Shown here piece by piece: positions 9,925 to 35,793 of a stretch of 45,385 nucleotides of DNA. The stretch lies in UHGV virus genome UHGV-1373008; one strand, given 5' to 3'. Position 1 is the first letter of the stretch. Each line of letters begins with the position of its first letter. A program made the translations under genes and the position numbers. The DNA comes from a virus. Under the pieces are notes generated by a model. The model was not told the DNA's origin. It did not search any database and saw nothing but the letters and a program-made list of their open reading frames with translations.

Positions 9925-9953
9925 TTGACGTAGATTGAGCGCCATCGTATAGT
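9925..9953 (+). promoter_or_regulatory. Promoter TTGACGTAGATTGAG-N8-TATAGT (a consensus that recurs across this phage) driving the rightward small-gene array
   Basis: -35 at 9925-9930, 17-bp spacer, -10 at 9948-9953. RBS AAGAGGTG before the ATG at 9985. Confidence 0.6.
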
Positions 9954-9984
9954 TACCACACCAACAACAAAGAGGTGATGAAGA

Positions 9985-10206
9985 ATGAAAAAAGGACAAA
10001 TTGTTACAGCAACAGAAGTAAAACTTGGCTCAGGCGGCTATCTGACAGAGGGTAAGTCTTATGAGATTGTTTCTGCTATTGGTGATGAATGCCAGTACGG
10101 AAAAATAAAAACAGAATTTGGATTCGAAATCGTAAATGATATGGGTACGAAAAGCTTCTGCCTGTACCCAGAATGCCTTCACGCTAAATGGAGTATTTCA
10201 GAATGA
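9985..10206 (+). CDS. Hypothetical protein (73 aa)
   Basis: ORF track; RBS. Confidence 0.5.
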   Translation: MKKGQIVTATEVKLGSGGYLTEGKSYEIVSAIGDECQYGKIKTEFGFEIVNDMGTKSFCLYPECLHAKWSISE

Positions 10207-10388
10207 CCAAAGCAATCTACACGCGCACTCAACTGGAACCAGAAATGGGCGCAGTGAAAGCGCAAAACTTTATGATGGCGCAGGCGATGCATTCATACAG
10301 CAACGGTAAGCGCGTCTGTCGCGTTTTTAGTGGCGAAGGCAAGCATAGAGTGCTTGAGCAGGTTATCGTGTCATCTGGTGGAAACTAA
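10203..10388 (+). CDS. Hypothetical protein (61 aa), ATGA-coupled
   Basis: Internal ATG overlapping the upstream stop. Confidence 0.4.
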   Translation: MTKAIYTRTQLEPEMGAVKAQNFMMAQAMHSYSNGKRVCRVFSGEGKHRVLEQVIVSSGGN

Positions 10389-10403
10389 ACCGGTTTAGCA
10401 ACG

Positions 10404-10682
10404 ATGAATAAATTACTGGCAGTGGCTTTACTGGTTATCGCTAACGCGGCAAGCGCTGAAACGATATGGGTCACGAAGTACGCGCTGACCCGTGGCATTC
10501 AGAAGTACGAAAGCGCACAGCTATTCGCAGATGGTCAGGTGGCTGTGGTTGGCGATGTTTACTTTAAACGTGGTGAATACTGGCTTGATGAGCAACAGGC
10601 AAAAGAGCATGCAGAGACTTTGCGGCAACGCCGTGTATCTGCGCTGATGCGTGAGCTTGAGCGTTTACAGGCGGTTAAGTGA
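10404..10682 (+). CDS. Secreted hypothetical protein with Sec signal peptide (MNKLLAVALLVIANAASA)
   Basis: N-terminal signal peptide with an AxA cleavage site. Confidence 0.55.
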   Translation: MNKLLAVALLVIANAASAETIWVTKYALTRGIQKYESAQLFADGQVAVVGDVYFKRGEYWLDEQQAKEHAETLRQRRVSALMRELERLQAVK

Positions 10683-10688
10683 GGATTT

Positions 10689-11138
10689 ATGGATATCGAA
10701 ATTAAAGAAGTTCAGGAAATTATTAAAAACCTTGAGAGTAGTGGCGAGCTATCAATCAAAGAGGAAAAATACCTCAAGGTGGCAAAGCTGTGCATGCAGG
10801 TGGTTGCGGAAAATGTGGGGATAAAGGGGGCAATCCATCAACTAAAAAATATTGATTATCAAAATGAAAGCATGAATGACGTGACATTGGCAGAAGAGAT
10901 TGGGTTCAATGCAGCTGTGATGGCCATGTATCGCTGGGTTCCTAAAACCCCCGGCTACGATGCGATCGGTGGCGGGGTTAAGGCTGATGGAGTGGATGAG
11001 TTTTCGAAAACTCTAGAGGGGGCCGCTGACATTTGTGGTAAGTCAAAAGCATGGGGGGCGCAAGAAAATTTACTTGATTTTGCTGAGCGTGGATTCGACT
11101 TCGCCAAGCAGCTGCGCGAGGGGGCTAATCATGACTGA
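10689..11138 (+). CDS. Hypothetical protein (149 aa)
   Basis: ORF track. Confidence 0.5.
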   Translation: MDIEIKEVQEIIKNLESSGELSIKEEKYLKVAKLCMQVVAENVGIKGAIHQLKNIDYQNESMNDVTLAEEIGFNAAVMAMYRWVPKTPGYDAIGGGVKADGVDEFSKTLEGAADICGKSKAWGAQENLLDFAERGFDFAKQLREGANHD

Positions 11139-11550
11139 TATCACCGAACTGGCGCAGAGCATGAAAGCGGCGGCAGAGAATGCCGGAATAGAGCAATGGG
11201 TTAACAATCGCGGAGAGGTAAACACAGCCGATTATGGGGTGGATGGTGGCATGTATATCGACCACATTTGCGACTGTGAAATCGTCGGAACAGAAAGCCC
11301 GTGTGCAGAGTTCATTGCCCTGGCTAACCCTGCCAACGTTCTTGCGCTGGTAGAGGCGCTGGAGAAGGCGCAGCGGAGCATCGCCGAGCTGGAGTCACGC
11401 TTAAACTCTGCTGACAAATTGCAGGACAGTGCATTCCGTAGTGGATTGCAACACGGCTTTAGTCTCGGACAGACAGATGACCAAAAAGGTTATGAGCAGA
11501 GCATGGCCGCTTATAGCTCCCACACTGGCATCAAGGTGGAGGCTGAGTAG
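11131..11550 (+). CDS. Ead/Ea22-like early protein (putative)
   Basis: ATGA-coupled internal start. Coiled-coil segment LALVEALEKAQRSIAELESRL is typical of the Ea22-like family of enterobacterial phages. Confidence 0.45.
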   Translation: MTDITELAQSMKAAAENAGIEQWVNNRGEVNTADYGVDGGMYIDHICDCEIVGTESPCAEFIALANPANVLALVEALEKAQRSIAELESRLNSADKLQDSAFRSGLQHGFSLGQTDDQKGYEQSMAAYSSHTGIKVEAE

Positions 11551-11868
11551 ATGAAACCTGCAAATTTTGCCCCTGTGTACTGCGCACTTTATCCGGCACT
11601 GGCAGAGATAGCCCGCAAGCACGGTTACGCAATGGCTATTCACGGAACGATGGCGCGTGACTTTGACCTTATTTGTATCCCGTGGGTCGAGACTCCATCA
11701 AAACCTGAAGAAGTCGTGGCAGAAATCACCGCAACATATGCGACTACAGATATCACTAACCCTGGCTACAAGCCTCACGGTCGCCTGGCCTATTCCGTCT
11801 GCTTTGGGTTCGGTGAGTTCTTTGCTGACATGTCGTTTATGCCTGTTATCGAAGGAGCCAACCAATGA
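11551..11868 (+). CDS. Hypothetical protein (105 aa)
   Basis: ORF track; directly follows the upstream stop. Confidence 0.5.
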   Translation: MKPANFAPVYCALYPALAEIARKHGYAMAIHGTMARDFDLICIPWVETPSKPEEVVAEITATYATTDITNPGYKPHGRLAYSVCFGFGEFFADMSFMPVIEGANQ

Positions 11869-12278
11869 CCAAATCAACCATAACCAGAGCGCGCATGCAG
11901 GAAATGCTAGAGTGGTGTGAGGTCTTCCGCCGCCACCCTCGCCTAGATGACATTGCCGAGGCTATACGCATGGCGCTGGCCGCAATGGACAGCGAGCCGG
12001 TTTTCACTCTTGAAGTTTCGCAAGCAGACTACAAAGGACAGAAACTGGGAAATCACTTTGGGTTTATCACTCTTGATGCGGCGCGTAATTTGAAAGAGGG
12101 AAGTTACCAGCTCTATCGCCACGCGCAGCCAGCGCCGGTAGTGCCGGATGGTTACGTGATGGTTCCGAAGGAGCCTACGGAGGAAATGCTACAGGCTTCC
12201 TATCGTGAAGCGGCTGTGTATAGCCCCACGGCTTATCGAGCGATGATTGCAGCCGCCCCGCAGGAGGGAAAACAATGA
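11865..12278 (+). CDS. Hypothetical protein (137 aa)
   Basis: ATGA overlap. Confidence 0.5.
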   Translation: MTKSTITRARMQEMLEWCEVFRRHPRLDDIAEAIRMALAAMDSEPVFTLEVSQADYKGQKLGNHFGFITLDAARNLKEGSYQLYRHAQPAPVVPDGYVMVPKEPTEEMLQASYREAAVYSPTAYRAMIAAAPQEGKQ

Positions 12279-12367: not shown

Positions 12368-12370
12368 TTT

Positions 12371-12529: not shown

Positions 12530-12723
12530 TGCCGCAGAAATCAAAGCAGGAGGTATGGCAGAGCGCTCAGCTCGAAGGTGTTAACCATTTCATAGCAGCA
12601 ATCGCAAAAGCCTTTCCTGATGCTATTGAGGTAGTTCACGTTCAAAGCAATAACTGTAATGTTTGGTGTTATGCGAAAACTGATGTACAATCATCTCATC
12701 AATCATCACCCACCACCCTTTAA
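12529..12723 (+). CDS. Hypothetical protein (64 aa)
   Basis: ORF track. Confidence 0.45.
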   Translation: MPQKSKQEVWQSAQLEGVNHFIAAIAKAFPDAIEVVHVQSNNCNVWCYAKTDVQSSHQSSPTTL

Positions 12724-12747
12724 CCCGCTTCGGCGGGTTCTTTTTTT
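12722..12747 (+). terminator. Rho-independent terminator (AACCCGCTTCGGCGGGTT + TTTTTTT)
   Basis: GC stem, GCTTCGGC loop region and a 7-T run. Confidence 0.75.
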
Positions 12748-12804
12748 ATCTACGCCATGTGGTAAGATATGTCCTATGCGAGTTACTCAAAGGACACATA
12801 TAAA

Positions 12805-13248: not shown

Positions 13249-13387
13249 TGAGGAAAATAATTACAAATCAAAATGTGATGAGATACTGTTACCGCGCAAC
13301 AGCAGTAATCGCGGCGTTACTTTTGATAAAGCAATGACGGATGAAGAAGTGATGGACATTTTGCAGGGGCTAATCAATGGCTCGTAA
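13241..13387 (+). CDS. Small hypothetical protein (48 aa) overlapping the TerS end and TerL start
   Basis: ATGGATGA overlap. Confidence 0.25.
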   Translation: MDDEENNYKSKCDEILLPRNSSNRGVTFDKAMTDEEVMDILQGLINGS

Positions 13388-14801
13388 ACGCCTGTCAGCA
13401 CTGGCAATAGAAAAGCTGGAGGCGCAGGTGGATGATGCGATGACCGATGTGGCAGAGTCGGCCATCTTCGGCATCTGCGATATGCAGAAGAACGTCATCA
13501 AGCGCCTCAGAATGACCGCTACGGGCGTGGAGGATGTCACCAGTGAAACAACGCAAGAAGACCACTTAATCCCCGCAAAACTCGAAAGGCTGCTTTATCC
13601 GAAGCGTAATAAGGTTGTCTTTGGTGGTCGAGCATCAACAAAGACCCGTACCGTGGCAACCATACTCACTGAGTCCGCGAGATTCAGGCCTGAGCGTATT
13701 GGCTGTTTCCGCGAAATTCAGCAGTCTATCGAGGATTCCAGCTATCAGGAGCTGGTAGATGAAATCGACCGCAAAGGCGAATCATCGGAATATCGCTGCA
13801 TCGACGGCAAGATAACCCACAAGCGAACCAAATCAAAATTCAGATTCCGTGGCCTCTATCGCAACATCACCGGCGTCAAGGGTTTTGCCGGGATATCGAA
13901 AGCATGGGTGGAGGAAGCTGAAAACGTCAGTCAGGCGTCATGGGACATCCTTGAGCCAACCATCCGAGCAGAAGGTTCTGAGATATGGGTGACGTTCAAC
14001 CCCAACAAAGAAACCGATGCCACTTGGACTCAGTGGGTGGCGCCCTATTACGACAAGATGGTTGATGGCATCTACGAGGATGATGACACATTAATCATTG
14101 AGTGTAATTACCGAGACAACCCGTGGTTCTATGACACCCCGCTCCCAGCATCCATGGAGAAAATGAAGGCGGTAGATTTCGACCGATATCTCTGGATTTG
14201 GGAAGGAAAATTTAATAAACGAAGCGATGAGCAGGTATTCGGCGGCAAATGGCGCACCGCATCGTTTGAGATTAATCCTGAATGGCATGGCCCGTATCAC
14301 GGCATGGACTTCGGTTTCTCTGGCGACCCTGCTGCGATGGTTGAGGTATGGGTGGAAAACCTGCCCGGCGACCGGAGGAACATTTATATTAATCGTGAGT
14401 ATGGCAAGGTTCATCTTGAGATTACCGACCACCCGGCAGCAATGGACCAGGCATTTCCGATGGCGCGCAAGGCTCGATGGTATGCTGACTCCTCAAGGCC
14501 GGAAACCATCAGTCACATCAAGCGCGCTGGCTTTGACATTCATCCCTGCAACAAATGGCCCGGCAGCGTTGAGGATGGCGTGACATGGCTCAGGGGTTGC
14601 GACAACATCATCATTCACGACCGCTGCACTGAAATGAAAAACGAGGCTGCGATGTACAGCCATAAGGTCGACAAGAATACAGGTCTTGTGCTTACTGAAA
14701 TCGTTGATAAATACAACCACTATTGGGATGCCGTGCGCTATGCGCTGAATGACTATATTGTGCAGCGTGGCTCTGGTTGGATTAGGAGGAGCAGGAGATA
14801 A
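13377..14801 (+). CDS. terL: Terminase large subunit
   Basis: ATPase motif GGRASTKT and C-terminal nuclease region; 474 aa. Confidence 0.8.
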   Translation: MARKRLSALAIEKLEAQVDDAMTDVAESAIFGICDMQKNVIKRLRMTATGVEDVTSETTQEDHLIPAKLERLLYPKRNKVVFGGRASTKTRTVATILTESARFRPERIGCFREIQQSIEDSSYQELVDEIDRKGESSEYRCIDGKITHKRTKSKFRFRGLYRNITGVKGFAGISKAWVEEAENVSQASWDILEPTIRAEGSEIWVTFNPNKETDATWTQWVAPYYDKMVDGIYEDDDTLIIECNYRDNPWFYDTPLPASMEKMKAVDFDRYLWIWEGKFNKRSDEQVFGGKWRTASFEINPEWHGPYHGMDFGFSGDPAAMVEVWVENLPGDRRNIYINREYGKVHLEITDHPAAMDQAFPMARKARWYADSSRPETISHIKRAGFDIHPCNKWPGSVEDGVTWLRGCDNIIIHDRCTEMKNEAAMYSHKVDKNTGLVLTEIVDKYNHYWDAVRYALNDYIVQRGSGWIRRSRR

Positions 14802-14830: not shown

Positions 14831-15154
14831 TTATGCGTTGATGATAAAATTAAACGCGCCAGTTTTTCCTGTTTTCTCAACGTATTCAGCGTATTTCTGG
14901 TTGATTCCACCTTTAAAACTGTCAGCCATCGGCGTAAGGATTTCATACATTGCCGCAGCAAAGGTGGAGCGCTTATCTTCGTCAAATGCCAGGTATTCAT
15001 TAGTCATCTGCTGCTGCTTCTGGAAGAAAGTCATGATTTCCTCATGGATAACTACCATCACTTCCGCGTCAGTCATTTCAGCAGTAACACGCGCCTTAAC
15101 ACCCTCAACGATGAACGGCGCTACTTTTTTGAACTGGTTCAGGATGTTTTCCAT
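14831..15154 (-). CDS. Hypothetical protein (107 aa), part of a minus-strand moron
   Basis: ORF track; own upstream promoter region (15155-15243). Confidence 0.5.
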   Translation of the reverse strand: MENILNQFKKVAPFIVEGVKARVTAEMTDAEVMVVIHEEIMTFFQKQQQMTNEYLAFDEDKRSTFAAAMYEILTPMADSFKGGINQKYAEYVEKTGKTGAFNFIINA

Positions 15155-15243
15155 TTTGATTTACTCGCTTATCTTCGGCATCGCGCCGCCTCAATGATTA
15201 CAATCTACATCAACCACGAATCAACGGCAACATTTATAATAGA

Positions 15244-15534
15244 TTATTTATAAAGCCAGCAATGAATCCCCGCATTGCGCATTGCGGCATAAATCACGTC
15301 ATCAGACACGACCGCCATTGCCACCCTGTCAGCGTCAATCTGCTGGTGCGAGGCCATAATGTCATCATAGAAGACGTCGTTAGCATGCAGCCACTCATAC
15401 GCATGCTTCGCCTTCATGATAAGCACATCATGCCCGGCAGAGTAGAGCGACTTAGCCAGCGCAACGTTGCCAGCAATAGCATTGCCCTCCGCATCACGCA
15501 GCACACCATCAAGCTCGAAAATGACACATTTCAT
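15244..15534 (-). CDS. Hypothetical protein (96 aa; N-terminal FELDGVL resembles HAD motif I)
   Basis: RBS GGAGA. Promoter TTGACG-N17-TAGATT upstream. Confidence 0.5.
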   Translation of the reverse strand: MKCVIFELDGVLRDAEGNAIAGNVALAKSLYSAGHDVLIMKAKHAYEWLHANDVFYDDIMASHQQIDADRVAMAVVSDDVIYAAMRNAGIHCWLYK

Positions 15535-15560
15535 AAGATTTCTCCGAGAGGTTTCATTTT

Positions 15561-15589
15561 AATCTACGCCATGCTAGAATCTACGTCAA
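15561..15589 (-). promoter_or_regulatory. Promoter TTGACGTAGATT-N11-TAGATT (minus strand) with two copies of the AATCTACG(C/T)CA motif
   Basis: -35 is the reverse complement of 15584-15589; -10 is the reverse complement of 15561-15566; 17-bp spacer. Confidence 0.55.
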
Positions 15590-15623
15590 GGCGCATTGAC
15601 ATAACTACATCACCGGGGGCATC

Positions 15624-15863
15624 ATGAAGGCATACTCATCTTTTTCGTGGGAGCAGAAGGAAAAAATATACTCACTCGCAAGAGCTGGTGTGTCTGATGA
15701 TGCTCTGTGCGAAAGGTATGATGTGGATGAGGCCATCCTGCTGCGCATGTATGATGAAGTGCTGTGTGAGTTGCAGCGGAGACGTGGATACAGTGGGCTG
15801 AAGACGATTAATGATTTCTTTCGGAATGTTGAGATAAATAACGATGAGGGTGGTGATTTATGA
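15624..15863 (+). CDS. Hypothetical protein (79 aa)
   Basis: ORF track. Confidence 0.5.
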   Translation: MKAYSSFSWEQKEKIYSLARAGVSDDALCERYDVDEAILLRMYDEVLCELQRRRGYSGLKTINDFFRNVEINNDEGGDL

Positions 15864-16027
15864 TTATTGAAGGAAGGATTTTTACCGACTTGTCTGCCAG
15901 AGAGGTAACAAGTCAAGTGTCAATGAACATCAATCAAGATGGCGACGCAATAGTCATCGACAAACACCAGGCCGCGCAGCTTATCGAAGTCCTGCAACGC
16001 TGGGTTAATGGCGAGGAGATTGAGTGA
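15860..16027 (+). CDS. Small hypothetical protein (55 aa), ATGA-coupled
   Basis: Open frame below the track cutoff. Confidence 0.3.
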   Translation: MIIEGRIFTDLSAREVTSQVSMNINQDGDAIVIDKHQAAQLIEVLQRWVNGEEIE

Positions 16028-16245
16028 TGAAAGCTGTCAAAACAATCCTGTTCTGCATCATCAATCCGCACCTGATTGTGATGCTGGTATTCGCTGCCAT
16101 GCTTCTTGGAGCAAGGAAGTCACTTTATTATCTTTCCGACAAGCTGAATGATGCTGCACGTTACATTCAGAGTGTTGACTATAAACTCGCTGCGAAGTCG
16201 CAGCCAGCATGGTTCAGATCGCTGGTTGATGATGAGGCGAAGTGA
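16024..16245 (+). CDS. Membrane protein (N-terminal transmembrane segment, 73 aa)
   Basis: ORF track; hydrophobic N-terminus. Confidence 0.45.
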   Translation: MMKAVKTILFCIINPHLIVMLVFAAMLLGARKSLYYLSDKLNDAARYIQSVDYKLAAKSQPAWFRSLVDDEAK

Positions 16246-16427
16246 TGTCGTATTTCTTCCTGATATTCGTAATCACAAGCAACACGTCCAATATGCAGGT
16301 GGTGCCGATGCAAAGCATGGAGCAGTGCAGGGCGGCCATTACGGCAATGAAAATCGCTGAGGAAAAGCGGACGTGGAATGATGTAAGTCCAAATGTTGAC
16401 AATTTGCAATGCGTTGAGGTGAAGTGA
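16242..16427 (+). CDS. Hypothetical protein (61 aa)
   Basis: ORF track; coupled. Confidence 0.4.
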   Translation: MMSYFFLIFVITSNTSNMQVVPMQSMEQCRAAITAMKIAEEKRTWNDVSPNVDNLQCVEVK

Positions 16428-16624
16428 TGACAAGAAAACAGATTCATGATGTTGCGGTTGGTTGCAGGAAGTGGATTGAGGAGATATGGTTTAAGCCTGG
16501 ATTCAGTGGAAAGCGCTATAAATTGTACGCCAAATGTCGCGGTTTGGTTCTTGGGGATAGAATAGAGCTTGCTATATTCCATAACAATGACCAGGCCCTT
16601 CAAGAGAGAGCCTTTGGTGACTGA
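16424..16624 (+). CDS. Hypothetical protein (66 aa)
   Basis: ORF track; coupled. Confidence 0.4.
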   Translation: MMTRKQIHDVAVGCRKWIEEIWFKPGFSGKRYKLYAKCRGLVLGDRIELAIFHNNDQALQERAFGD

Positions 16625-16635
16625 TACCATGCTAT

Positions 16636-20205: not shown

Positions 20206-20496
20206 TTATTTGTCGCCCATCGTTGACAGGCAGACTTCACGGGCGACAGCGGCCACTTCTTTCGGTGTCTTGTCTGTCATTTTGTATGCCCCATCAACGA
20301 TGGCCTTGCTGAGTTGGTTAAATTCAGCGCTATACTGGCCTCCAGAAGAAACCATCAGCGCGAGCTGCTTTGATACGCCAGCATCACGGGCTTCTGCTGC
20401 CGCTTCACCGAACTCACCAACTGCATTGCAAAACTCGCCAGCCGACGCACCAAATGAAGCCATTGCGAATACTGCTGCTGCGATTAATTTTTTCAT
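20206..20496 (-). CDS. Secreted small protein (Sec signal MKKLIAAAVFAMASFGASA)
   Basis: Signal peptide; RBS GGAGAG. Confidence 0.55.
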   Translation of the reverse strand: MKKLIAAAVFAMASFGASAGEFCNAVGEFGEAAAEARDAGVSKQLALMVSSGGQYSAEFNQLSKAIVDGAYKMTDKTPKEVAAVAREVCLSTMGDK

Positions 20497-20517: not shown

Positions 20518-20572
20518 GTATCTACATCATCGCTTACGATTCAATCTACGTCAAGTATTTTTATGATATAAT
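20518..20572. promoter_or_regulatory. Divergent regulatory region: two AATCTAC(A/G)TCA motif copies, with TTGACG on the minus strand and an extended -10 TGATATAAT on the plus strand
   Basis: Motifs at 20518-20529 and 20541-20555; extended -10 at 20564-20572. Confidence 0.5.
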
Positions 20573-20611: not shown

Positions 20612-21340
20612 ATGTCAAAAAAAATGTCAAACGAAGACTTTGTGGCATCAGCCAGGGCAGCACACGGGAGTAGATTCAGGTACGAAAAGTGCGTTTATGA
20701 CGGGAAAAAGAAAAAATTAATAATAATTTGTAGGATGCACGGGGCTTTCCTCACTCATCCAGATACCCACTTAAAGGGAAAACATGGAGGATGTGATAAG
20801 TGTGCAAGGATTCAGCATGGCAGGAGATCATCAGAAAGGTGCAGGAGCAAGGTGAGAGACCTTGATATTTCCGATATCGTTAAATATGAACCTGAAACGG
20901 GTGATTTTACTTGGGTTAAGAACACAACAATTCGAGACTCAATAGGAAGGAAGGTTGGTAGCAAAACTAAGAATGGTTATATTGAATGTCAGATTCAGGG
21001 AGAGAGGTACTTACTACATAGACTGGCTTGGTTTATGCACTATGGATCATGGCCGCCAGGTGAGATAGATCACATTAATTGCATCAAAACAGATAACAGA
21101 ATTAAAAATCTTAGGCTTGCCACTTTTTGTGAAAATCAACAAAACAAGGGCATTTCAGAAAGCAATAAGTCAGGCGTCAAAGGCGTCTGCTGGGACAAAA
21201 GGTTATCAAAATGGAAAGCCAGGGTCTACGCATCAAGGGTGTTGGTGGCAGAGAGGGTATTTGACGACCTGAATGAAGCCGCAGAGTGGATAAAAAATGT
21301 TAGAATGAGACACCACAAAGAATTTTCCCGGGAGGCTTAG
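20612..21340 (+). CDS. HNH homing endonuclease with C-terminal AP2 DNA-binding domain (paralogue 1 of 3)
   Basis: HNH core LHRLAWFMHYG...IDHIN..TDNRIKNLRL. AP2-like segment SGVKGVCWDKRLSKWKARV. Confidence 0.75.
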   Translation: MSKKMSNEDFVASARAAHGSRFRYEKCVYDGKKKKLIIICRMHGAFLTHPDTHLKGKHGGCDKCARIQHGRRSSERCRSKVRDLDISDIVKYEPETGDFTWVKNTTIRDSIGRKVGSKTKNGYIECQIQGERYLLHRLAWFMHYGSWPPGEIDHINCIKTDNRIKNLRLATFCENQQNKGISESNKSGVKGVCWDKRLSKWKARVYASRVLVAERVFDDLNEAAEWIKNVRMRHHKEFSREA

Positions 21341-22500: not shown

Positions 22501-22755
22501 TCAACCAATAACCATCCAGTCGCTAGCGATCATATCGGTTTGGCTTGCCAGCCATGGCACCAGTTTCCCATCAGCCGTTTTCATGCAGATAAAAGGTAGC
22601 GTATTAAGCCCGTCAATCCCATCAATATCGCACTCAAAGTCCCATGCCCCTCCTGCTATCATGAACAGGAACATACCCTTTCCATTCCACCCATTTCTTG
22701 CTACCTTGCATCCAATTCCCATCTCCTCCAGGGCCTCACCAAAGCTTAAAGACAT
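22501..22755 (-). CDS. DUF2829-family protein (same family as Thoeris anti-defence Tad2)
   Basis: Motifs GWNGKGMF and DGKLVPWLASQTDMIASDWMV match the DUF2829 signature. Confidence 0.55.
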   Translation of the reverse strand: MSLSFGEALEEMGIGCKVARNGWNGKGMFLFMIAGGAWDFECDIDGIDGLNTLPFICMKTADGKLVPWLASQTDMIASDWMVIG

Positions 22756-23234: not shown

Positions 23235-23701
23235 TTTGCATCCCCATTCAGTTCATTAACAATTAATGTTGCATAGCCAGCAATGTCCTTCCAGCTATCG
23301 TCATATGTCGGGTCGCCATTCAGGATTCGACCGATTTTATGCTGAATCATGTCGAGCGCTTCCTTCTGGCTCGCCGTCAGGTTGTTCCAACCATCAACGT
23401 CGCGCATGGTGTCTTTCAGTGACTGCATGATTTCTGCACCGTCTTTGAATTTGCCATAGCGGCTTCCGCGCTCGGTGATGAGGCGTCCTGTGGGGGATTC
23501 AAATGGCATCCATGGGTCGGGCTCCAGCTCACGATGAGCGATAATAATGTCGCCAACCTTTTCGATATCCTTATCCCGGCCTGCGTAATCCAAACCGAGA
23601 TGGTATACCCTGCCAGTTGATGCTGATTTCACAACAAGAATAGCGCCTGGATGGCCTTCAAAATCTGCTTCACTTCCTTTATGGTATTTGTATTTCATCA
23701 C
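23231..23701 (-). CDS. Hypothetical protein (156 aa)
   Basis: ORF track; ATGA overlap. Confidence 0.5.
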   Translation of the reverse strand: MMKYKYHKGSEADFEGHPGAILVVKSASTGRVYHLGLDYAGRDKDIEKVGDIIIAHRELEPDPWMPFESPTGRLITERGSRYGKFKDGAEIMQSLKDTMRDVDGWNNLTASQKEALDMIQHKIGRILNGDPTYDDSWKDIAGYATLIVNELNGDAK

Positions 23702-23898
23702 TCACCTCTCAACGTAACTTTGTTTTTCTCATCTACGCTGAAATGCTCGCGCACAAACGCATACATTTCTTCGGCGCTCCATTCCCGCATTGCTACATAG
23801 CAGTGCGCGTAATATCTGACATCTCGCAGGCTTAACGGTTGGCGCTTAGCGATAATCTCAGTCAATACTTCCAGTGGTTCTTTGCGTTGTCTCGCCAT
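23698..23898 (-). CDS. Hypothetical protein (66 aa)
   Basis: ORF track; RBS GGAGAG. Confidence 0.45.
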   Translation of the reverse strand: MARQRKEPLEVLTEIIAKRQPLSLRDVRYYAHCYVAMREWSAEEMYAFVREHFSVDEKNKVTLRGE

Positions 23899-23920: not shown

Positions 23921-23976
23921 TCTTGACGAATCTACGTCAATTAGTCAATACTCTGTGTTGTAGATTGTACCATAAT
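23921..23976. promoter_or_regulatory. Divergent control region: palindrome TTGACGAATCTACGTCAA plus an inverted partial copy TTGTAGATTG and a -10 CATAAT
   Basis: Motifs at 23923-23940 and 23958-23967; CATAAT at 23971-23976. Confidence 0.5.
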
Positions 23977-23994: not shown

Positions 23995-24210
23995 ATGAAG
24001 AAGTGGCAGGAGGTGACAGAGGTTCATAAGCGCGATTGCCGGGAGACTCTGCAAATGCTTAATGTGCCGGAGTCAATCATTAAATCTATCGAGCAGCGCA
24101 TTGACCTCGCTGCTATGGAGGCAGCCCATGAAGCCGAGGAAGCGCAAATGTTGTCATGGATGGACAGAACTCTACCGGGCGTTTTACATCGTGGTAAGAC
24201 TACCGATTGA
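23995..24210 (+). CDS. Hypothetical protein (72 aa)
   Basis: Internal ATG with RBS AGGTGG. Confidence 0.45.
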   Translation: MKKWQEVTEVHKRDCRETLQMLNVPESIIKSIEQRIDLAAMEAAHEAEEAQMLSWMDRTLPGVLHRGKTTD

Positions 24211-24293
24211 AGATGATGACGGGTATCTGCATAACCATAGTCAGGTACTCAAATATTATGGCGTTCACTATAAAGTGCTGATGGAGAGAAAAA

Positions 24294-24485
24294 ATGACTA
24301 CTGATCAGGTGTACGAAAAAGAGTTGCTGAACAAGCTGGAAGAACTCGACCGCACTCGCGCATGGGTTGAAAGCGAATTGCGCGAGGTTCGCAACCGCAT
24401 GCAACGGCAGGTTAACCGCGAAATTATCGAATGGCGCGAGGGGCGCCCGCATTTCAGCAATATTGGTGAATGGGTGGCGAAATGA
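24294..24485 (+). CDS. Hypothetical protein (63 aa, coiled coil)
   Basis: ORF track. Confidence 0.4.
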   Translation: MTTDQVYEKELLNKLEELDRTRAWVESELREVRNRMQRQVNREIIEWREGRPHFSNIGEWVAK

Positions 24486-24721
24486 AACCAATGATGAATG
24501 ATAATGGGCTGCTGGAGTGTCCATTTTGCAATGAAATTAGCGTTGGTGTTGCCACTGATGAAGATGGCTGGCAATACATTGAATGTAGTGATTGTTATTG
24601 CCGCACGGATGGTTTCAGAAATCCCAAACTCATGGTTGAAAGATGGAATACCCGCAACGGCCACCTCTACACCGCTGACGACTACAAACAAGATGCACTG
24701 GAGCGCGCAAATGGACTTTAA
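24482..24721 (+). CDS. Lar-family restriction-alleviation protein (zinc-binding)
   Basis: LLECPFCNE...IECSDCYC...ERWNTR matches the Lar_restr_allev signature (CPFCG ... WN.R). ATGA-coupled. Confidence 0.65.
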   Translation: MKPMMNDNGLLECPFCNEISVGVATDEDGWQYIECSDCYCRTDGFRNPKLMVERWNTRNGHLYTADDYKQDALERANGL

Positions 24722-25181
24722 AACGCAAATACTCACGGTGATAGAGCGCTGTGGTGGCGCAACCAATGCCATGATACGCAAGCAGACTGGCATGACAAAC
24801 CGAGCCAGCGTTACAGGCTATCTGATTGAGCTGGAGGGTATGGGATTTATTATTAAAGAGGAAAGCGTCAGCTATGGCAGGCGCTGCTTTAAGTATTTCC
24901 TCAATCCCGATAATACCGCGCTTGACATGGCAATTCAGACGTACCTTGAGGAGAATCCGGGACGCAAGAGCAAGCAGATAGCAGAGGCTGTCGGCGTCAA
25001 CTACACCATCCTGAAAGCGCGTATGCGCTATCTGGCGAGCATTGGTCAGGTTGACCGTGAAATGCTTCCCGGTGGCGCGTGGAAATATTACTGGCAGGAA
25101 ATCATCCCGTTTGGAATGAGTCGTGACAGGATGATGTTTGAAAAGCTGCTTGCCGCGGTGCGCCAGTCATGTGGGCGGTAA
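24711..25181 (+). CDS. Putative DNA-binding protein with two winged-helix (MarR-like) repeats
   Basis: Two repeats of the pattern ..I....GG.T...I.....G.T...V.GYL..LE..G.I. RBS GGAG. Confidence 0.45.
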   Translation: MDFKTQILTVIERCGGATNAMIRKQTGMTNRASVTGYLIELEGMGFIIKEESVSYGRRCFKYFLNPDNTALDMAIQTYLEENPGRKSKQIAEAVGVNYTILKARMRYLASIGQVDREMLPGGAWKYYWQEIIPFGMSRDRMMFEKLLAAVRQSCGR

Positions 25182-29605: not shown

Positions 29606-30142
29606 CTAAATCCTCATTGGCATAACGATAACTTTTGCAGTCTCTCCAGTAGGCGCACTGATGTTTGCGACGGCGGTGCTGGTGTTGCCATTCAACTCAA
29701 ATAGCACCGCTTCAAATTTCGGGTTAAACAACTTCGCCAGCTTCTCAACATCGGCAAGATATTTGGCATTGAAGCCAATCTGTTCTGCTGGCGCGGCCTG
29801 CTTAGGAATGATGCGATCAATATCAGGGTAATTGCCGTCAACCTCAGAGCAAATACCTGCGCCAACCAGCACATCAAAATTGTTATGATAAGTGACAATC
29901 TTTGCCATGGTATCAATCACCGCATATGAATAATTTTTTGTCGGCGACTTGCTTATCGACACGATGACGTTACTTTTTATTTTGTTTTCATGCTTACTGG
30001 CAATCATGGCGCGATGACCGTCAGTAGCGGCAACTCGACCATCAGGCATAAAGCAAATGCCATTCAGGTAGTAACGCACATCCTGTTTGTCTTGAAATAT
30101 CAAAGCACCTTCAAGGAGTAACTTGCTAACTTTTAATTTCAT
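29606..30142 (-). CDS. Truncated DNA polymerase III beta (DnaN) sliding-clamp homologue (178 aa, roughly domain II plus a shortened domain III)
   Basis: QDVRYYLNGICFMPDG..VAATDGHRAMIAS versus E. coli DnaN QDVRYYLNGMLFETEG..RTVATDGHRLAVCS. C-terminus AKVIVMPMRI versus AAYVVMPMRL. Confidence 0.7.
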   Translation of the reverse strand: MKLKVSKLLLEGALIFQDKQDVRYYLNGICFMPDGRVAATDGHRAMIASKHENKIKSNVIVSISKSPTKNYSYAVIDTMAKIVTYHNNFDVLVGAGICSEVDGNYPDIDRIIPKQAAPAEQIGFNAKYLADVEKLAKLFNPKFEAVLFELNGNTSTAVANISAPTGETAKVIVMPMRI

Positions 30143-30315
30143 CACTTCACCTTTATCATGTGTTGTTTTGCAACCTTCAGGCATTCATCGAAAATCTTGC
30201 CATTCTTTTCACTCTGGTTGCTCCTGTAGTGGGTAATTGCGGCCTCTATAGCCGCGTTGTCGATGCCTGGCAGTTTTTCGCGCAGGTTTTTCTCTATGAA
30301 TTGCTCGTGGTTCAT
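30142..30315 (-). CDS. Small hypothetical protein (57 aa), coupled between the ParB-like and DnaN-like genes
   Basis: TGATG overlaps at both ends. Confidence 0.35.
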   Translation of the reverse strand: MNHEQFIEKNLREKLPGIDNAAIEAAITHYRSNQSEKNGKIFDECLKVAKQHMIKVK

Positions 30316-31130
30316 CACAGCTTCTCCAGAATCGCCAGCACTTCATTCAACTCAGCAGAAGGAAGGCGCAAAAATTCTTCTGTCTCCTGTGCCACATGCC
30401 CCTCGGCTACCACCATGTGATCTGCTTCTTTCAGCAACTGAATCAGGCGGTCAATCGGCTTAACTTTTTTGGCCTTGAGGGTTTTCGCCGTCACCTTATC
30501 TTTTCCCTGCGCTTTCGCTTCCTCAACGGCTGCATCAATAACGTTAACAGCATCATCGCCATGCTCACGTGCTACCGCAACGGCGTTGGCATAGCTGATT
30601 TGGCCTGCATTGATGCGTTGCTTGATGGCATCAGGTACATCACCAAGTGACAGGTGCATCTGCACATCAGAAACTGAGCGACCAACCTTCTTGGCGATTT
30701 CTTCATTCGTCCATCCGAACCCTTTCAGGCGCACATAAGCCTTTGCACGCTCAAGCGGGTCAAGCTGCTTTCCTTGACTGGATGACACCATGAAGGCGAT
30801 TTTATCCGCTTCATCGCCGGTGAAGTCTTTGCACTCAATGCGCGCAATTGGTATTCCGCGCTCAATGGCACGCAGTGCGCCAAGGTAACGATGCTGGCCG
30901 TCAAGAATCTTGATACGCTTTCCGTCGGCATCAGGAATAACAGTTAACGCAGGGATTGGCTGGCCTGATTCCCAGCACTGCGCGAAGTATTCAACGTGCT
31001 GCTCATCGGCTTCGCGGATGTTGTACCCCGGCTCAAGATAAAGCTGATCGACAGGAACCTGATAACCTTTGTTGACCACGATTCCGCCGCGAGTTTCTTT
31101 GTCTGAGTAAATTTTTCCGAGAGATGTCAT
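30315..31130 (-). CDS. ParB/Srx-like nuclease-domain protein
   Basis: ParB N-terminal motif KILDGQHRYLGA. Start at an internal ATG with RBS GAGGAAAAG. Confidence 0.7.
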   Translation of the reverse strand: MTSLGKIYSDKETRGGIVVNKGYQVPVDQLYLEPGYNIREADEQHVEYFAQCWESGQPIPALTVIPDADGKRIKILDGQHRYLGALRAIERGIPIARIECKDFTGDEADKIAFMVSSSQGKQLDPLERAKAYVRLKGFGWTNEEIAKKVGRSVSDVQMHLSLGDVPDAIKQRINAGQISYANAVAVAREHGDDAVNVIDAAVEEAKAQGKDKVTAKTLKAKKVKPIDRLIQLLKEADHMVVAEGHVAQETEEFLRLPSAELNEVLAILEKL

Positions 31131-31520: not shown

Positions 31521-31530
31521 TTATTGTTGT

Positions 31531-31587
31531 TTCTACGTCATCACTATAGCTACACCCTCAATCTACGTCAACACTTTATGATAAAAT
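31531..31587. promoter_or_regulatory. Divergent control region: minus-strand promoter TTGACGTAGATTGAG-N8-TATAGT (reverse complement of 31543-31571) and plus-strand extended -10 TGATAAAAT (31579-31587); two motif copies
   Basis: Same 15-mer as the promoter at 9925. Confidence 0.6.
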
Positions 31588-33653: not shown

Positions 33654-33730
33654 TGGTTACCGCGACAGGATTCGAACCTGTAATCATCCGATTATGAGTC
33701 GGGTGCTTTAACCAGTTAAGCTAAACGGGA
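33654..33730 (-). tRNA. tRNA-Met/Ile2-like (anticodon CAT) with an imperfect acceptor stem (5 of 7 pairs); possibly a degenerate or pseudo-tRNA
   Basis: D-arm GCTT/AAGC, anticodon loop CTCATAA, T-arm ACAGG-TTCGAAT-CCTGT, encoded CCA. The acceptor has C2/U71 and U7/C66 mismatches. Confidence 0.5.
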
Positions 33731-33733
33731 GTT

Positions 33734-33811
33734 TGGTGCACCATACTGGATTCGAACCAGTGACCTACGGATTAGAAGTCCGTTGCTACTATCCTGCTGA
33801 GCTAATGGTGC
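33734..33811 (-). tRNA. tRNA-Arg (anticodon TCT)
   Basis: Acceptor GCACCAT/ATGGTGC, anticodon stem ACGGA/TCCGT, loop CTTCTAA, T-arm ACTGG-TTCGAAT-CCAGT, CCA encoded. Closely parallels E. coli argU. Confidence 0.85.
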
Positions 33812-33828
33812 GTTGCGTTGTTGATTCG

Positions 33829-33868
33829 AATCTACACCACCAATCAAAACCTGTCAACATGATATAAT
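33829..33868. promoter_or_regulatory. Divergent promoters: minus-strand TTGACA-N17-TAGATT (reverse complement of 33829-33857) for the tRNAs; plus-strand extended -10 TGATATAAT (33860-33868) for the tail operon
   Basis: The minus-strand start site is predicted about 10 nt upstream of the tRNA-Arg 5' end. The motif copy GAATCTACACCA contains the -10. Confidence 0.6.
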
Positions 33869-33902
33869 GCGATTGTTTAGCTAAACACAGAGGATTCTAA
33901 AC

Positions 33903-34658
33903 ATGGCTATTTGTGCAAATGATAACGGCATCATCACAGGTCGCCAGTCTCTCATTGAGCTGGCTGATGGCTGCTGGGATGCTGTGCCAGCAGAGGAAGA
34001 CTGGAAGTTTTTTGCTCCCATGACCTCAAAAGGCGTCGACTTCAGTCCAAGCACCACCACTTCAGAGGCTGATGATGGCGATGGCTTTGTCGCCACGCTG
34101 GTCACTACGGCAGACCTCACCATTTCCGGTGATTTTGAAGTTCGCAAGGCTGACAAGGCTGATGAGTATGGCGTGCACAACCTCATCAAATACTTTGTCA
34201 CCGAAGTAAAAGCGCGTCGCCAGCCGTCGCTGTGGGTTCGCCAGACCACCGGTAATACTGTTGTCGTGGCTTACTGCAACATTACCGCTCTGAGCTACGA
34301 TGGCGGCACCAACGACATCATCACCGGCTCTGTTGAACTCAAGCCGTATGATGGCTCTACCGTTGACGTGTCCAGCATCGAAGACCTGACGCTGACTACT
34401 GATATCAGCGCAACAAAAAGCGTTGCCACTGGCGACACTCTGACGCTCGGTCCGGTGGTTGCGGCTGGCGGTGTAGAGCCTTATACCTACCAATGGTATA
34501 AAGGCACCACGCCGATCAGCAGTGCTAATACCAACACGTTCACCAAGGCCACTGCTGCCGCAGGTGATGCTGGTACGTACTTCTGCCGCGTGATGGACTC
34601 GGCAACCAGTCCTGATTACGTTGACTCTACTAAGTGTGTCGTCACCGTGACCGAATAA
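33903..34658 (+). CDS. Major tail protein with C-terminal Ig-like (Big_2-type) domain
   Basis: 251 aa. C-terminal YQWYKG...AGTYFCRV Ig-fold signature as in lambda gpV. Confidence 0.65.
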   Translation: MAICANDNGIITGRQSLIELADGCWDAVPAEEDWKFFAPMTSKGVDFSPSTTTSEADDGDGFVATLVTTADLTISGDFEVRKADKADEYGVHNLIKYFVTEVKARRQPSLWVRQTTGNTVVVAYCNITALSYDGGTNDIITGSVELKPYDGSTVDVSSIEDLTLTTDISATKSVATGDTLTLGPVVAAGGVEPYTYQWYKGTTPISSANTNTFTKATAAAGDAGTYFCRVMDSATSPDYVDSTKCVVTVTE

Positions 34659-34661
34659 AGA

Positions 34662-34689
34662 AAACCCCCGAAAGGGGGTTTATTTTTTC
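34662..34689. terminator. Bidirectional terminator (AAACCCCC-GAAA-GGGGGTTT + ATTTTTTC)
   Basis: Stem-loop. Confidence 0.75.
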
Positions 34690-34842
34690 AGCAATGAAGA
34701 TACGCGGATTCTCCACAATGACAAGTTAGCGAGCGATACCGCTAACTCCATGTGAATCAATCTAAGTTTTTCAATATCAACAAAGACCGGGGCGTTGTAT
34801 TGTTGATTGCTTCTTATGTACTTTGAAATAGTATCAGCATCA

Positions 34843-35121
34843 TTATTGTCGATGGTCATCACCATTCTCGCTGATTGCAGCATCAAGTTGTCGACGCAAC
34901 ATACACAGCGCGCCATGCGGCATAAACTGATTAGCCATGCCATCGAATATCTGCCGGTTTAATTTATTATCAATCCGCGGCCTTATTGCTGACCAGCACG
35001 ACCGTATAGCGCGATTAACCTGGCGGCGGTCGAGCATTGCGAGTCGCGCAGCTAACTCAATGGTAACGAGCGCGTCAAGATACTGCTCGCAGGCATGGCG
35101 ATTTTCGTTATCCATCATCAT
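34843..35121 (-). CDS. Hypothetical protein (92 aa) downstream of an HNH gene
   Basis: ATGA-coupled to the HNH stop. Confidence 0.4.
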   Translation of the reverse strand: MMMDNENRHACEQYLDALVTIELAARLAMLDRRQVNRAIRSCWSAIRPRIDNKLNRQIFDGMANQFMPHGALCMLRRQLDAAISENGDDHRQ

Positions 35122-35603
35122 TTACCATGGTTCTCATGAAAATTATACTTAACCTCCGCCTTTCTCCTTGCTTCAGCGGCCATATTTAAGTCAGAAAACA
35201 ATCCAAGATGAATCTTTACGCCATCAACTTTTATGTTTGAGGCCCATTTTTTATGTTGCTTATCCCATGAAACACCAGTAACACCTGATTTGTTTGTCAC
35301 CCTGAACTTCATGTTGTGATTATTCTCTTTTGGAGTGACAAGCCTGAGGTTATCTATCTTATTGTTTGTTTTATTGTGGTCTATATGATCAATCTGCATT
35401 CCGTCAGGAATTTTCCCATTATGCATTTCCCAGATGATGCGATGAACAAGATACTTGAAGCCATAGATTCCAACAATCTTATATCCATTACCTCCTACCG
35501 CCTTCACCTCGCCTCCTATTTTCACTCTGTTTGAGGTTCTTATCTTCCAGTAAATAGCCCCATCACAATAATAAAAAATATCTGACCAATCAGTTATTTT
35601 CAT
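35118..35603 (-). CDS. HNH homing endonuclease with AP2 domain (paralogue 2 of 3)
   Basis: HRIIWEMHNG...IDHIDHNKTNN. AP2-like segment SGVTGVSWDKQHKKWAS. Confidence 0.75.
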   Translation of the reverse strand: MKITDWSDIFYYCDGAIYWKIRTSNRVKIGGEVKAVGGNGYKIVGIYGFKYLVHRIIWEMHNGKIPDGMQIDHIDHNKTNNKIDNLRLVTPKENNHNMKFRVTNKSGVTGVSWDKQHKKWASNIKVDGVKIHLGLFSDLNMAAEARRKAEVKYNFHENHGK

Positions 35604-35724
35604 CGAATGTCACCCCTACCATTGCAAGTAATTTTTTCGCCATCAACTCGGCCTCATCATAGGTAAACCCGCAATCAACGTACAGGTCGATGTAAAATCT
35701 CAAATCAACATCAGTCTCGTTCAT
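35601..35724 (-). CDS. Small hypothetical protein (41 aa), coupled upstream of the HNH gene
   Basis: Open frame overlapping the HNH start. Confidence 0.25.
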
Positions 35725-35752
35725 ATGTCAAACCCTCAATCACCTTATGCTT

Positions 35753-35793
35753 TCAATCTACGTCAGTTTTGCGCCCCCTGTCAATGGTATAAT
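35753..35793. promoter_or_regulatory. Motif copy TCAATCTACGTCAG plus plus-strand extended -10 TGGTATAAT (35785-35793) for the tail-chaperone/tape-measure operon
   Basis: Read directly from the sequence. Confidence 0.5.

Follow-up and report, generated by a model that had tools for sequence, protein, structure and literature searches.

An asymmetric 13-bp motif, probably a dispersed operator, forms part of about a dozen Klebsiella phage promoters

The window, that is, the whole 45,385-nt stretch of UHGV virus genome UHGV-1373008, is a Klebsiella phage, a Roufvirus-like virulent siphophage. About a dozen of its promoters have built into them a short motif whose core is the asymmetric 13-bp sequence TGAYGTAGATTSA. 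Recurrence of this motif had been recorded in an initial annotation, and every copy listed there is present, with shifts of at most 1-2 nt; the motif itself appears to be undescribed so far. The copies, and the genes discussed with them, are as follows.

9925-9938 (+), motif copy TTGACGTAGATTGA; TTGACG is the -35 of TTGACG-N17-TATAGT, with the -10 at 9948-9953
12747-12757 (-), degenerate copy TGGCGTAGATA; a terminator hairpin (12722-12739) lies on one side of it and the terminase operon's extended -10, TGGTAAGAT (12760-12768), on the other
15200-15213 (-), copy TTGATGTAGATTGT; TAGATT may serve as -10, TTGCCG lying 17 nt further upstream
15561-15571 (-), proximal copy TGGCGTAGATT; TAGATT is the -10, the -35 coming from the neighbouring copy at 15576-15589; drives 15244-15534(-)
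15576-15589 (-), distal copy TTGACGTAGATTCT; supplies the -35 (TTGACG-N17-TAGATT)
15624-15863 (+), 79-aa protein that all nine relatives share; a further possible regulator
20519-20529 (-), proximal copy TGATGTAGATA, 24 nt ahead of the start of 20206-20496(-)
20541-20554 (-), copy TTGACGTAGATTGA; -35 of the leftward promoter TTGACG-N17-GATGAT
23927-23940 (-), copy TTGACGTAGATTCG, 32 nt ahead of the start of 23698-23898(-); the left-hand one of two copies set back to back
23956-23966 (+), its inverted partner TGTTGTAGATT, about 29 nt ahead of the ATG at 23995 of a 71-aa gene, 23995-24210(+)
24711-25181 (+), tandem winged-helix ('MarR-like') protein, a secondary candidate regulator; dispensable, and not shared by the whole clade
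30315-31130 (-), ParB/KorB-like protein, 271 aa from the ATG at 31130; its operon is headed by two motif copies
31530-31540 (-), proximal copy TGACGTAGAAA, at about +1 to +10 of the distal copy's promoter; conserved in all genera
31558-31571 (-), copy TTGACGTAGATTGA; -35 of TTGACG-N17-TATAGT, heading the leftward operon with the ParB-like gene
33654-33811 (-), tRNA-Met (33654-33730) and tRNA-Arg (33734-33811), directly downstream of the motif-bearing promoter at 33829-33857
33829-33839 (-), copy TGGTGTAGATT; -10 of TTGACA(33852-33857)-N17-TAGATT, about 19 nt upstream of the tRNA-Arg 5' end (33811)
35753-35766 (-), copy CTGACGTAGATTGA; -10 of TTGACA(35779-35784)-N18-TAGATT, heading a leftward cassette

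The frequency of the motif was compared to that in shuffled sequence. The 14-mer TTGACGTAGATTGA, allowing up to two mismatches, has 7 matches where 0.24 are expected, a number reached in none of 100 shuffles, and the core TGNYGTAGA has 15 matches in the window against 2.13 expected (shuffle maximum 6). Thirteen of these 15 are intergenic, although the intergenic set makes up only about 10% of the window (binomial P = 1.1e-11), which bears out the claim of intergenic recurrence at 12 or more sites; shuffles confined to intergenic sequence gave a mean of 0.29 core matches and a maximum of 3. The remaining two matches (779 and 6299) lie in coding sequence and are at chance level, as the initial annotation had judged by eye. 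In the window 12 of 13 copies share one strand orientation, and palindromy is poor: the best self-complement pairs 6 of 10 positions.

The motif is not confined to this genome. Nine relatives, which span five genera (Roufvirus-like L001, L004, L005 and L130; Saltrevirus L002; Deseoctovirus L003; Macdonaldcampvirus L127; Skatevirus L128 and L129), carry it at the same nodes, and each of their genomes has 11-16 matches. Two unrelated lambdoid phages have 3-4 matches each, which is the chance level, none of them at a recognisable promoter node.

Each copy points towards what it heads. Followed in the direction in which the motif points, 11 sites have a gene start 15-60 nt further on and, in one further case, the start is that of a tRNA. 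The statement that all copies lie within 60 bp of a gene start thus holds with one exception: the copy at 12747-12757(-) faces the terminator and is the sole copy lacking a gene in its pointing direction. For 15200-15213(-) the downstream gene, 14831-15154(-), is an unconfirmed ORF; the Tbat1_6 orthologue of this copy heads a leftward cassette. The units headed in the window are the early rightward block (9985 onward, served by the 9925 promoter, "early" being judged from gene content), leftward accessory cassettes, one of which carries a Tad2-like anti-Thoeris gene, the ParB-like operon, and the two tRNAs. From pointing direction and start distance, the motif would thus mark early and leftward accessory units and not the rightward late operons, which appear to use extended -10 promoters.

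How the motif is built into promoters differs from site to site. A promoter scan returned six intergenic matches at 10 of 12 promoter positions, five of which contain the motif: it serves as -35 at 9925(+) and 31571(-), where the two TTGACG-N17-TATAGT promoters proposed earlier were recovered among the top-scoring sites, and as -10 at 33857(-) (TTGACA-N17-TAGATT, likewise proposed and top-scoring) and at 35784(-), where TTGACA-N18-TAGATT is an addition to the earlier list. TTGACG-N17-TAGATT at 15589(-), a 9 of 12 match also recovered at the top, is a composite: two motif copies in tandem, 17 nt apart, provide its two boxes. The motif is therefore promoter-associated, as had been claimed. The idea of one fused promoter element gives way, however, to two registers oriented by the targeted gene, in which either the TTGACG half acts as -35 or the TAGATT half lies in the -10/transcription start region.

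A non-circular test of these registers was made over the nine genomes. Among sites of the form TTGAC(A/G/T)-N16-18-TAGATT, 25 of 26 carry TG[AGT][CT]G directly before TAGATT (chance about 0.006 per site); among sites of the form TTGACR-N17 followed by at least five of the six positions of TATAAT, 13 of 17 have TAGA immediately following the -35. Because many of the sites are orthologous to one another, the counts represent only about four to five independent loci. In each class, then, the half that sigma-70 can dispense with is kept, which argues for a separate sequence-specific reader. Conservation beyond the needs of sigma-70 had been suggested in the initial annotation, and it is best read as pointing to a dedicated binding factor.

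The same nodes carry promoters on the opposite strand. All five extended -10 sequences reported earlier are present: TGATATAAT at 33860 and, for the lysis operon, at 20564-20572(+), after the copy at 20541-20554; TGATAAAAT at 31579-31587, beside 31558-31571; TGGTATAAT at 35785-35793, overlapped by the TTGACA at 35779-35784; and TGGTAAGAT at 12760. A further one, TGCTAGAAT (15572-15580, +), for gene 15624, lies between the copies at 15561-15571 and 15576-15589. The nodes are thus compact and divergent, as proposed, but a fixed link between motif and extended -10 box does not hold. The motif centre varies from about -22 to -40, and three of the rightward extended -10 boxes that precede late operons (16630, 26198 and 44267) have no motif: the motif is not a fixed element of rightward promoters. 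Flanking by GATGAT proved a weak claim, one instance (20554) being simply a candidate -10 box.

Taken together, sequence comparison leads us to regard the motif as a dispersed asymmetric operator-type site, which is probably recognised, at about a dozen promoters of the host sigma-70 type, by one regulator specific for its sequence. If so, a single phage regulator would control early and accessory genes together. Other explanations deserve consideration. The sites might need no dedicated factor, being related strong sigma-70 promoters spread by cassette duplication or recombination and kept because they are effective. Parts of the motif are indeed good sigma-70 hexamers with partners at the canonical 17-18 nt, and the entire promoter of the ParB operon, beyond the motif alone, is conserved across genera. 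Likeness among sites nevertheless ends at 13 bp, the flanks holding about zero information, and the same 13 bp serve in two registers with the part lacking sigma-70 contact retained (the 25 of 26 and 13 of 17 above). Moreover, the back-to-back copies at 23927-23966, which every genus examined has kept, lack good partner hexamers, and the copy at 31530-31540 sits at +1 to +10 – a classical operator position. We consider this explanation rather improbable.

Quite unlikely, too, is that the reader is a host (enterobacterial) transcription factor coupling phage early genes to host physiology. Such a factor, as a conserved host protein, would predict the identical motif seen in phages of Klebsiella, Salmonella, Escherichia and Shigella, and none of the phage DNA-binding proteins fits perfectly. 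Yet the motif is not known to match the consensus of well-known E. coli regulators, including CRP, FNR, IHF, Fis, LexA, Fur, MetJ, NarL, PhoB/PhoP/OmpR-type repeats, CreB, RutR and DnaA, the FNR site (TTGAT-N4-ATCAA) resembling it in the left half only. In most relatives the motif heads replication genes too. The window's swapped-in replication module has its own Cro-like regulator and no motif, which fits a phage-internal circuit.

A promoter for a phage-redirected RNA polymerase, by way of a sigma-like factor or MotA/AsiA-like appropriation of sigma-70, would account for the strict orientation to the downstream gene, the narrow start-codon distance and the want of canonical partner hexamers at 23927-23966. 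It is very improbable: a scan of about 40 proteins and the relatives' annotations yielded no sigma factor, no RNA polymerase and nothing like MotA or AsiA, and two motif positions relative to perfect sigma-70 partners are incompatible with a fixed-position promoter element. Least probable of all is a role in strand-specific DNA processing (as a nick site like those of T5 and phiKMV, a homing-endonuclease target or a module-exchange recombination boundary), for although 12 of 13 copies share an orientation, the genome encodes several HNH endonucleases and the motif lies at conserved/variable cassette boundaries, orientation tracks the downstream gene (early-region copies are rightward in the window and L002) and the exact 17-18 nt registers with -35/-10 partners are left unexplained.

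Under the preferred reading, an operator read by one regulator, the bound protein would sterically block RNA polymerase at motif promoters, and the early/accessory programme would thereby be shut off coordinately or autoregulated. At back-to-back nodes strong leftward promoters overlap the predicted rightward, -35-less extended -10 late promoters, so motif occupancy would be expected to shift the balance between directions. Not every site is explained by plain occlusion of a canonical promoter, given the hexamer-poor pair at 23927-23966.

As to the regulator, the best candidate – tentatively, and from homology and distribution – is the ParB/KorB-like protein. It matches Pfam HTH_ParB (4e-11) and KorB (2.6e-6) and, in the PDB, Spo0J (1.8e-11) and KorB (6.9e-5); between genera its identity is 79-82%, on a level with the capsid proteins, and its HTH does not vary; the gene is kept in the 36.5-kb minimal seszw mutant. 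Against it, ParB-family HTH proteins usually target palindromes and the motif is non-palindromic. In Klebsiella phage VLCpiS13d the gene is replaced by a 20%-identical homologue with a different HTH while 13 motif copies are unchanged, and lambdoid phages with a 43-48% identical homologue lack the motif. Box II is degenerate (GQHRYLGA vs GERRxRA). A less likely reader would be another conserved small phage protein, for example that at 15624-15863, whose confident three-helix N-terminal model is HTH-like, with no significant fold match. The winged-helix protein, proposed earlier, is a doubtful choice: Salmonella phage 64795_sal3 lacks it and still has 12 core matches, and the viable genome-reduced mutant seszw_290L has lost the gene and kept 13 sites. 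The two other regulators proposed with it are poor candidates as well, the Cro-like protein (5734-6072) being found in only one of six relatives and the 8807-9379 protein in none of six. The ParB/KorB-like protein was absent from the initial annotation; its phyletic pattern fits better than those of the three candidates named there.

Several known systems invite comparison. Like the MotA box of T4 middle promoters, the motif is a phage-specific element (of the 9-13-bp kind) replacing or overlapping the -35 of many sigma-70-dependent promoters; the MotA box, however, is fixed at about -30, whereas the motif lies at -35 or at -10/+1, and neither MotA nor AsiA has a detected homologue among the proteins and annotations scanned. 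In phi29, p4 binds between the divergent A2b/A2c and A3 promoters, represses early transcription and shifts it to late. The compact back-to-back early/late promoters, with a late promoter lacking a -35, are alike, but p4 sites are inverted repeats at one locus and the motif recurs at about nine nodes; since its distance to the rightward promoter varies, activation geometry is not conserved, unlike that of p4. The C1 repressor of phage P1 acts at 17-bp Op sites, which are asymmetric and spread through the P1 genome. Here, too, one asymmetric operator occurs at more than ten scattered sites, single or paired and overlapping promoters, and many unrelated operons are placed under one regulator. 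P1 is temperate, however, with C1 maintaining lysogeny, whereas the motif's clade is virulent; the operator sequences are unrelated, and the motif, unlike Op, doubles as -35 or -10. Finally, KorB of plasmid RK2 is a documented ParB-family global repressor (PMC11790492). Its OB site, a palindrome of 13 bp to which a dimer binds, differs from the asymmetric phage motif; KorB acts together with KorA and requires CTP, whereas box II of the phage candidate is degenerate. About a dozen copies of one site per replicon, many at promoters, resemble the arrangement described here, and KorB autoregulates its own operon, as might the window's candidate, which matches Pfam KorB and HTH_ParB and KorB structures.

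The motif – an asymmetric 13-bp sequence joining a TTGACG half to a TAGATT half (oligonucleotide form TTGACGTAGATTGA) – was proposed in the initial annotation from a set of copies, all of which are present in the window. With up to two mismatches allowed, the 14-mer has seven matches in the window where 0.24 are expected; the degenerate core TGNYGTAGA has 15 where 2.1 are expected. Confinement to intergenic DNA, also part of that proposal, is borne out: 13 of the 15 core matches fall within the intergenic ~10% of the window (binomial P = 1.1e-11), and shuffled intergenic DNA yields a mean of only 0.29. An equal frequency inside coding sequence had been named as grounds for abandoning the idea, and just two coding matches exist, a number at chance level. 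From 89 distinct sites, drawn from nine genomes, a matrix was derived whose core is TGAYGTAGATTSA and whose flanks carry no information. The motif is not palindromic: consensus and reverse complement agree at no more than six of ten positions, whatever the offset.

Poorer copies also occur. Two, each with two mismatches, may be weak or decaying sites: TGATGTAGTTA at 15602-15612 (-), inside the 15535-15623 node, and TGATGTATATA at 40908-40918 (-), in the node that precedes the leftward-reading HNH-AP2 gene 40280-40894. A one-mismatch copy (TTACGTAGAAA, (-), ~9518-9528) lies directly downstream of an extended -10 box (TGGTATCAT, 9507) within 9380-9984. These 605 bp of AT-rich non-coding DNA precede the early promoter, have short inverted repeats at 9618-9705 and 9829-9911, and could hold an origin, further early promoters or the first-injected end.

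Predicted promoters were assigned to sigma-70 where -35-like and -10-like hexamers stand 16-18 nt apart and the second and sixth bases of the -10 box are A and T. In a consensus promoter scan the motif is found in five of the six intergenic promoter-like matches that score 10/12. Promoters at 9925(+), 31571(-), 33857(-) and 35784(-) score 10/12, those at 15589(-) and 20554(-) 9/12; the pair of copies at 23927-23966 and the copy at 12747-12757 lack such hexamers. The motif takes up two registers, supplying either TTGACG as the -35 box or TAGATT as the -10 box:

Placement of the motif on predicted promoters of the window.
9925 (+) and 31571 (-): -35 class, TTGACG-N17-TATAGT
20554 (-): -35 class, TTGACG-N17-GATGAT
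33857 (-): -10 class, TTGACA-N17-TAGATT
35784 (-): -10 class, TTGACA-N18-TAGATT
15589/15561 (-): both boxes supplied, by two copies 17 nt apart
31530-31540: second copy, at about +1 to +10 of its promoter, kept in all genera

Conservation of each half was then assessed across nine genomes without presupposing the motif. Where TTGAC(A/G/T) and TAGATT are separated by 16-18 nt, TG[AGT][CT]G immediately precedes the -10 box in 25 of 26 cases (chance ~0.006 per site); where TTGACR is followed after 17 nt by a hexamer matching TATAAT at five or more positions, TAGA immediately follows the -35 box in 13 of 17 – counts that include many orthologues and correspond to about four to five independent loci. 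Because the non-hexamer half is kept in both sets, the half of the motif that has no sigma-70 role is conserved in each class, and it is this conservation of an unread half that forms our main argument: it points to a separate, sequence-specific reader, and it disfavours both an element of fixed position and a plain promoter family. A family of promoters with good hexamers and no factor at all is for this reason quite unlikely. Conservation beyond the needs of RNA polymerase, overlapping -35, -10 or +1, is what a repressor operator would display, and is what was found: judged by comparison of sequences, the predicted sigma-70-type promoters carry a conserved extra element at just these positions. 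Two other comparisons were rejected. The MotA-box middle promoters of T4 need a fixed position at about -30, whereas this motif lies at -35, -10 or +1 depending on the promoter; and a role at the level of RNA does not fit, since Rfam returns two tRNAs only and many copies lie upstream of predicted transcription starts.

The window is essentially the whole genome of a virulent siphophage (45.4 kb), with Aeromonas phage pIS4-A (Roufvirus), Flyfo siphovirus Tbat1_6 and many Klebsiella phages as close relatives (~90-94% nucleotide identity over shared parts). The terminase, portal, lysis, capsid, connector and tail genes form long rightward (+) operons, which are broken up by small accessory genes in short leftward (-) cassettes. 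Neither end of the window (44270-45385 and 1-146) has a complete ORF listed, and ORF 147-1079 is 99% identical to a pIS4-A tail protein: a tail-spike gene probably runs across the ends of a circularly permuted record. Between conserved modules stand three inserted HNH_3 endonuclease genes (20612-21340 (+), 35118-35603 (-) and 40280-40894 (-)), of which one has an AP2 domain. TerL is apparently uninterrupted (13377-14801), as against the 840-aa annotated TerL of pIS4-A. The 71-aa product of 23995-24210 (+), which overlaps an 80-aa ORF (24062-24304 (+)), is 98-100% identical in four relatives; 23995-24210 is probably where the rightward operon that follows the 23927-23966 node really begins, and 24062-24304 is probably not a gene.

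The motif occupies the same intergenic nodes in nine relatives (11-16 matches per genome): the Roufvirus-like phages pIS4-A, Tbat1_6, VLCpiS13c and VLCpiS13d, the Saltrevirus 64795_sal3, the Deseoctovirus C1, the Macdonaldcampvirus Vi II-E1, and the Skatevirus seszw, both wild type and as the genome-reduced mutant seszw_290L. Between the five genera nucleotide alignment is confined to structural genes (~76%), and in aligned orthologous nodes the motif is a conserved island. Two unrelated lambdoid phages, used as a control, have three to four matches each – about chance – and no match in either falls at a promoter node that could be recognised. When viral contigs were scanned for the exact pattern, relatives came up intermixed with chance matches. 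Full-text literature searches on the motif, the clade genera and ParB-like phage regulators found no description of the motif, and found neither transcriptome or 5'-end data nor a published transcription programme for the clade; the GenBank record of Vi II-E1 annotates other repeats, not this one.

Orientation of the motif is consistent. Read as TGAYGTAGATT, it has downstream of it, at 11 sites, a start codon 15-60 nt away and, at one site, the 5' end of tRNA-Arg; the sole exception, 12747-12757, faces a terminator. The units so headed are a block of small genes that starts at 9985 and looks early, leftward cassettes – among them one with a Tad2-like gene (22501-22755 (-), 84 aa; Pfam Tad2-like, Thoeris anti-defence 2, 2.6e-24) – the leftward operon that contains a ParB-like gene, and the tRNA-Arg/tRNA-Met pair.

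Rightward late operons all seem to begin with extended -10 promoters that have no good -35 box, and these look like a second, distinct promoter class of the genome. Rightward extended -10 boxes (TGnTAtAAT) are found at 12760, 15572, 16630, 20564, 26198, 31579, 33860, 35785 and 44267 (+). Five of these promoters adjoin the motif, with its centre (counted manually) anywhere from about -22 to about -40; the boxes at 16630, 26198 and 44267, which also precede late operons, have no motif. Given the variable distance and the three motif-free late promoters, we assign the motif to the leftward and early promoters. A fixed activator geometry at the rightward promoters is ruled out by the same variation. 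At 35779-35793 there is physical overlap between the -35 box TTGACA of the leftward promoter and the rightward TGGTATAAT, an arrangement in which the two predicted promoters must compete for RNA polymerase.

Replication genes provide a further comparison. Most relatives have the motif upstream of these genes as well (for example pIS4-A at 41527 and 44587; Tbat1_6 at 11916, 14294 and 14318). The window and VLCpiS13c have a different replication module and no copy of the motif in it: this module (1483-8770; helicase, SSB-like, Gam-like, Sak4-like, YdaS/P22-Cro-like regulator 5734-6072, P4-type primase 6057-8390) is 95-100% identical to that of VLCpiS13c, while pIS4-A and most relatives carry another module there. 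A foreign module free of the motif fits a regulatory circuit that is internal to the phage and not shared by that module. That a host transcription factor reads the motif is, in our judgement, improbable; a promoter for a phage-redirected polymerase is very improbable, and a DNA-processing site barely credible.

The proteins considered here as readers of the motif are candidates, ranked by phyletic pattern. The initial annotation had put forward three. The first, a winged-helix protein (24711-25181), is missing in 64795_sal3, which keeps 12 core matches, and is deleted in seszw_290L, a viable mutant of 36.5 kb (for its origin see PMC9825161) that keeps all 13 sites; the protein is thus dispensable. 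It has a tandem winged helix, with Pfam MarR and HTH_24 matches below gathering score, and is 33-37% identical across genera. A regulator of MarR type would be expected to be a winged-helix dimer with a palindromic operator and to be inherited together with it, whereas the motif is asymmetric and persists in 64795_sal3 and seszw_290L where the gene is missing. We reject this protein as main candidate, but given the invariant Y-I-K-R-R pattern of its second winged helix it might still act as a reader. Neither the Cro-like protein (5734-6072) nor the 8807-9379 protein is common to the motif-bearing relatives, and both fall away.

A different pattern is seen for the ParB/KorB-like protein 30315-31130 (-), which has both a ParB N-terminal domain and a ParB-type HTH (Pfam HTH_ParB 4.3e-11, KorB 2.6e-6; NCBIfam parB_part 2.5e-11, below that model's cut-off; in PDB, Spo0J 1.8e-11 with residues 53-205 aligned, and KorB 6.9e-5). 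Its identity across genera, 79-82%, equals that of the capsid proteins, and its HTH is invariant; its gene, which sits behind two motif copies, is kept in the minimal seszw genome. An intact CTP-binding box II (GERRxRA) was not found in the protein, the aligned segment being DGQHRYLGA, and there is a weak match to the DGQHR domain; nor was the palindromic site expected for ParB/KorB found, the motif being asymmetric. Because both features were sought and both are lacking, we do not claim membership of the ParB-parS/OB family; the asymmetry and the degenerate box also weigh against this protein as reader. No ParA or KorA partner was seen in the relatives' annotations or among the ~40 proteins scanned. 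Repurposed regulators of the ParB family are known: KorB, Noc, BisD and HerB (PMC11790492; PMC13370423). In the same operon, the 192-aa product of 29606-30184 (-) is annotated in relatives as a RusA-like resolvase or DNA polymerase III beta subunit, has only a sub-threshold Pfam match (beta-clamp central domain, 4.4e-4), and has a homologue that is removed in the minimal seszw mutant.

One relative counts mildly against ParB as reader. In VLCpiS13d (15149-16629) the usual ParB-like gene is reduced to a 31-aa stretch (residues 7-37, 100% identity), and the same operon is headed by gp38 (216 aa), a ParB-like protein with 20% identity over 190 aa (pairwise E = 1e-8) that, from this comparison, looks like a non-orthologous or xenologous replacement; the motifs are unchanged. 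Lambdoid phages with 43-48% identical ParB homologues have no motif, which is uninformative as to ParB specificity. Another possible reader is the 79-aa protein 15624-15863, universal among relatives, whose three-helix AlphaFold model (confident for residues 1-50; overall mean pLDDT 80.7) resembles HTH domains; Foldseek gave no significant fold match, only HTH-like ones (best E = 0.33).

The mechanism that we propose is that a regulator bound to the motif would occlude RNA polymerase, so that early and accessory units are shut off or autoregulated; at overlapping back-to-back nodes it would also alter how accessible the late promoters, which are -35-independent, become. A bolder reading, which we hold to be unlikely, is that a ParB/KorB-family protein, without ParA and with a degenerate CTP box, is the master temporal regulator of this clade of virulent siphophages: in contrast to the ParB proteins known so far, it would read an asymmetric 13-bp site made of -35-like and -10-like hexamers. 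It could then occupy the -35 or the -10 element at about a dozen sigma-70 promoters, shutting units for early, anti-defence and tRNA genes and releasing the late promoters that overlap them.

Those seeking candidate phages for therapy and biocontrol of Klebsiella, Salmonella and E. coli widely isolate members of this clade (Roufvirus, Skatevirus and relatives). For such phages the motif is a map of about a dozen promoters, through which a single cis element could jointly control tRNA, anti-defence and early genes, together with those for replication in most relatives; it also offers a handle for engineering, by promoter/operator swaps or timed expression of payloads. Conserved operator and promoter motifs are already familiar in phages, and the neat point is that one operator serves as either the -35 or the -10 box. 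A ParB-family reader, if true, would raise the interest of the motif: it would extend the family to DNA recognition of a new, non-palindromic kind and give it a new role, in a lytic phage. In its working mode the proposed regulation comes closest to the KorB/OB network of RK2, the dispersed asymmetric operators of phage P1 C1 and the p4 switch of phi29.
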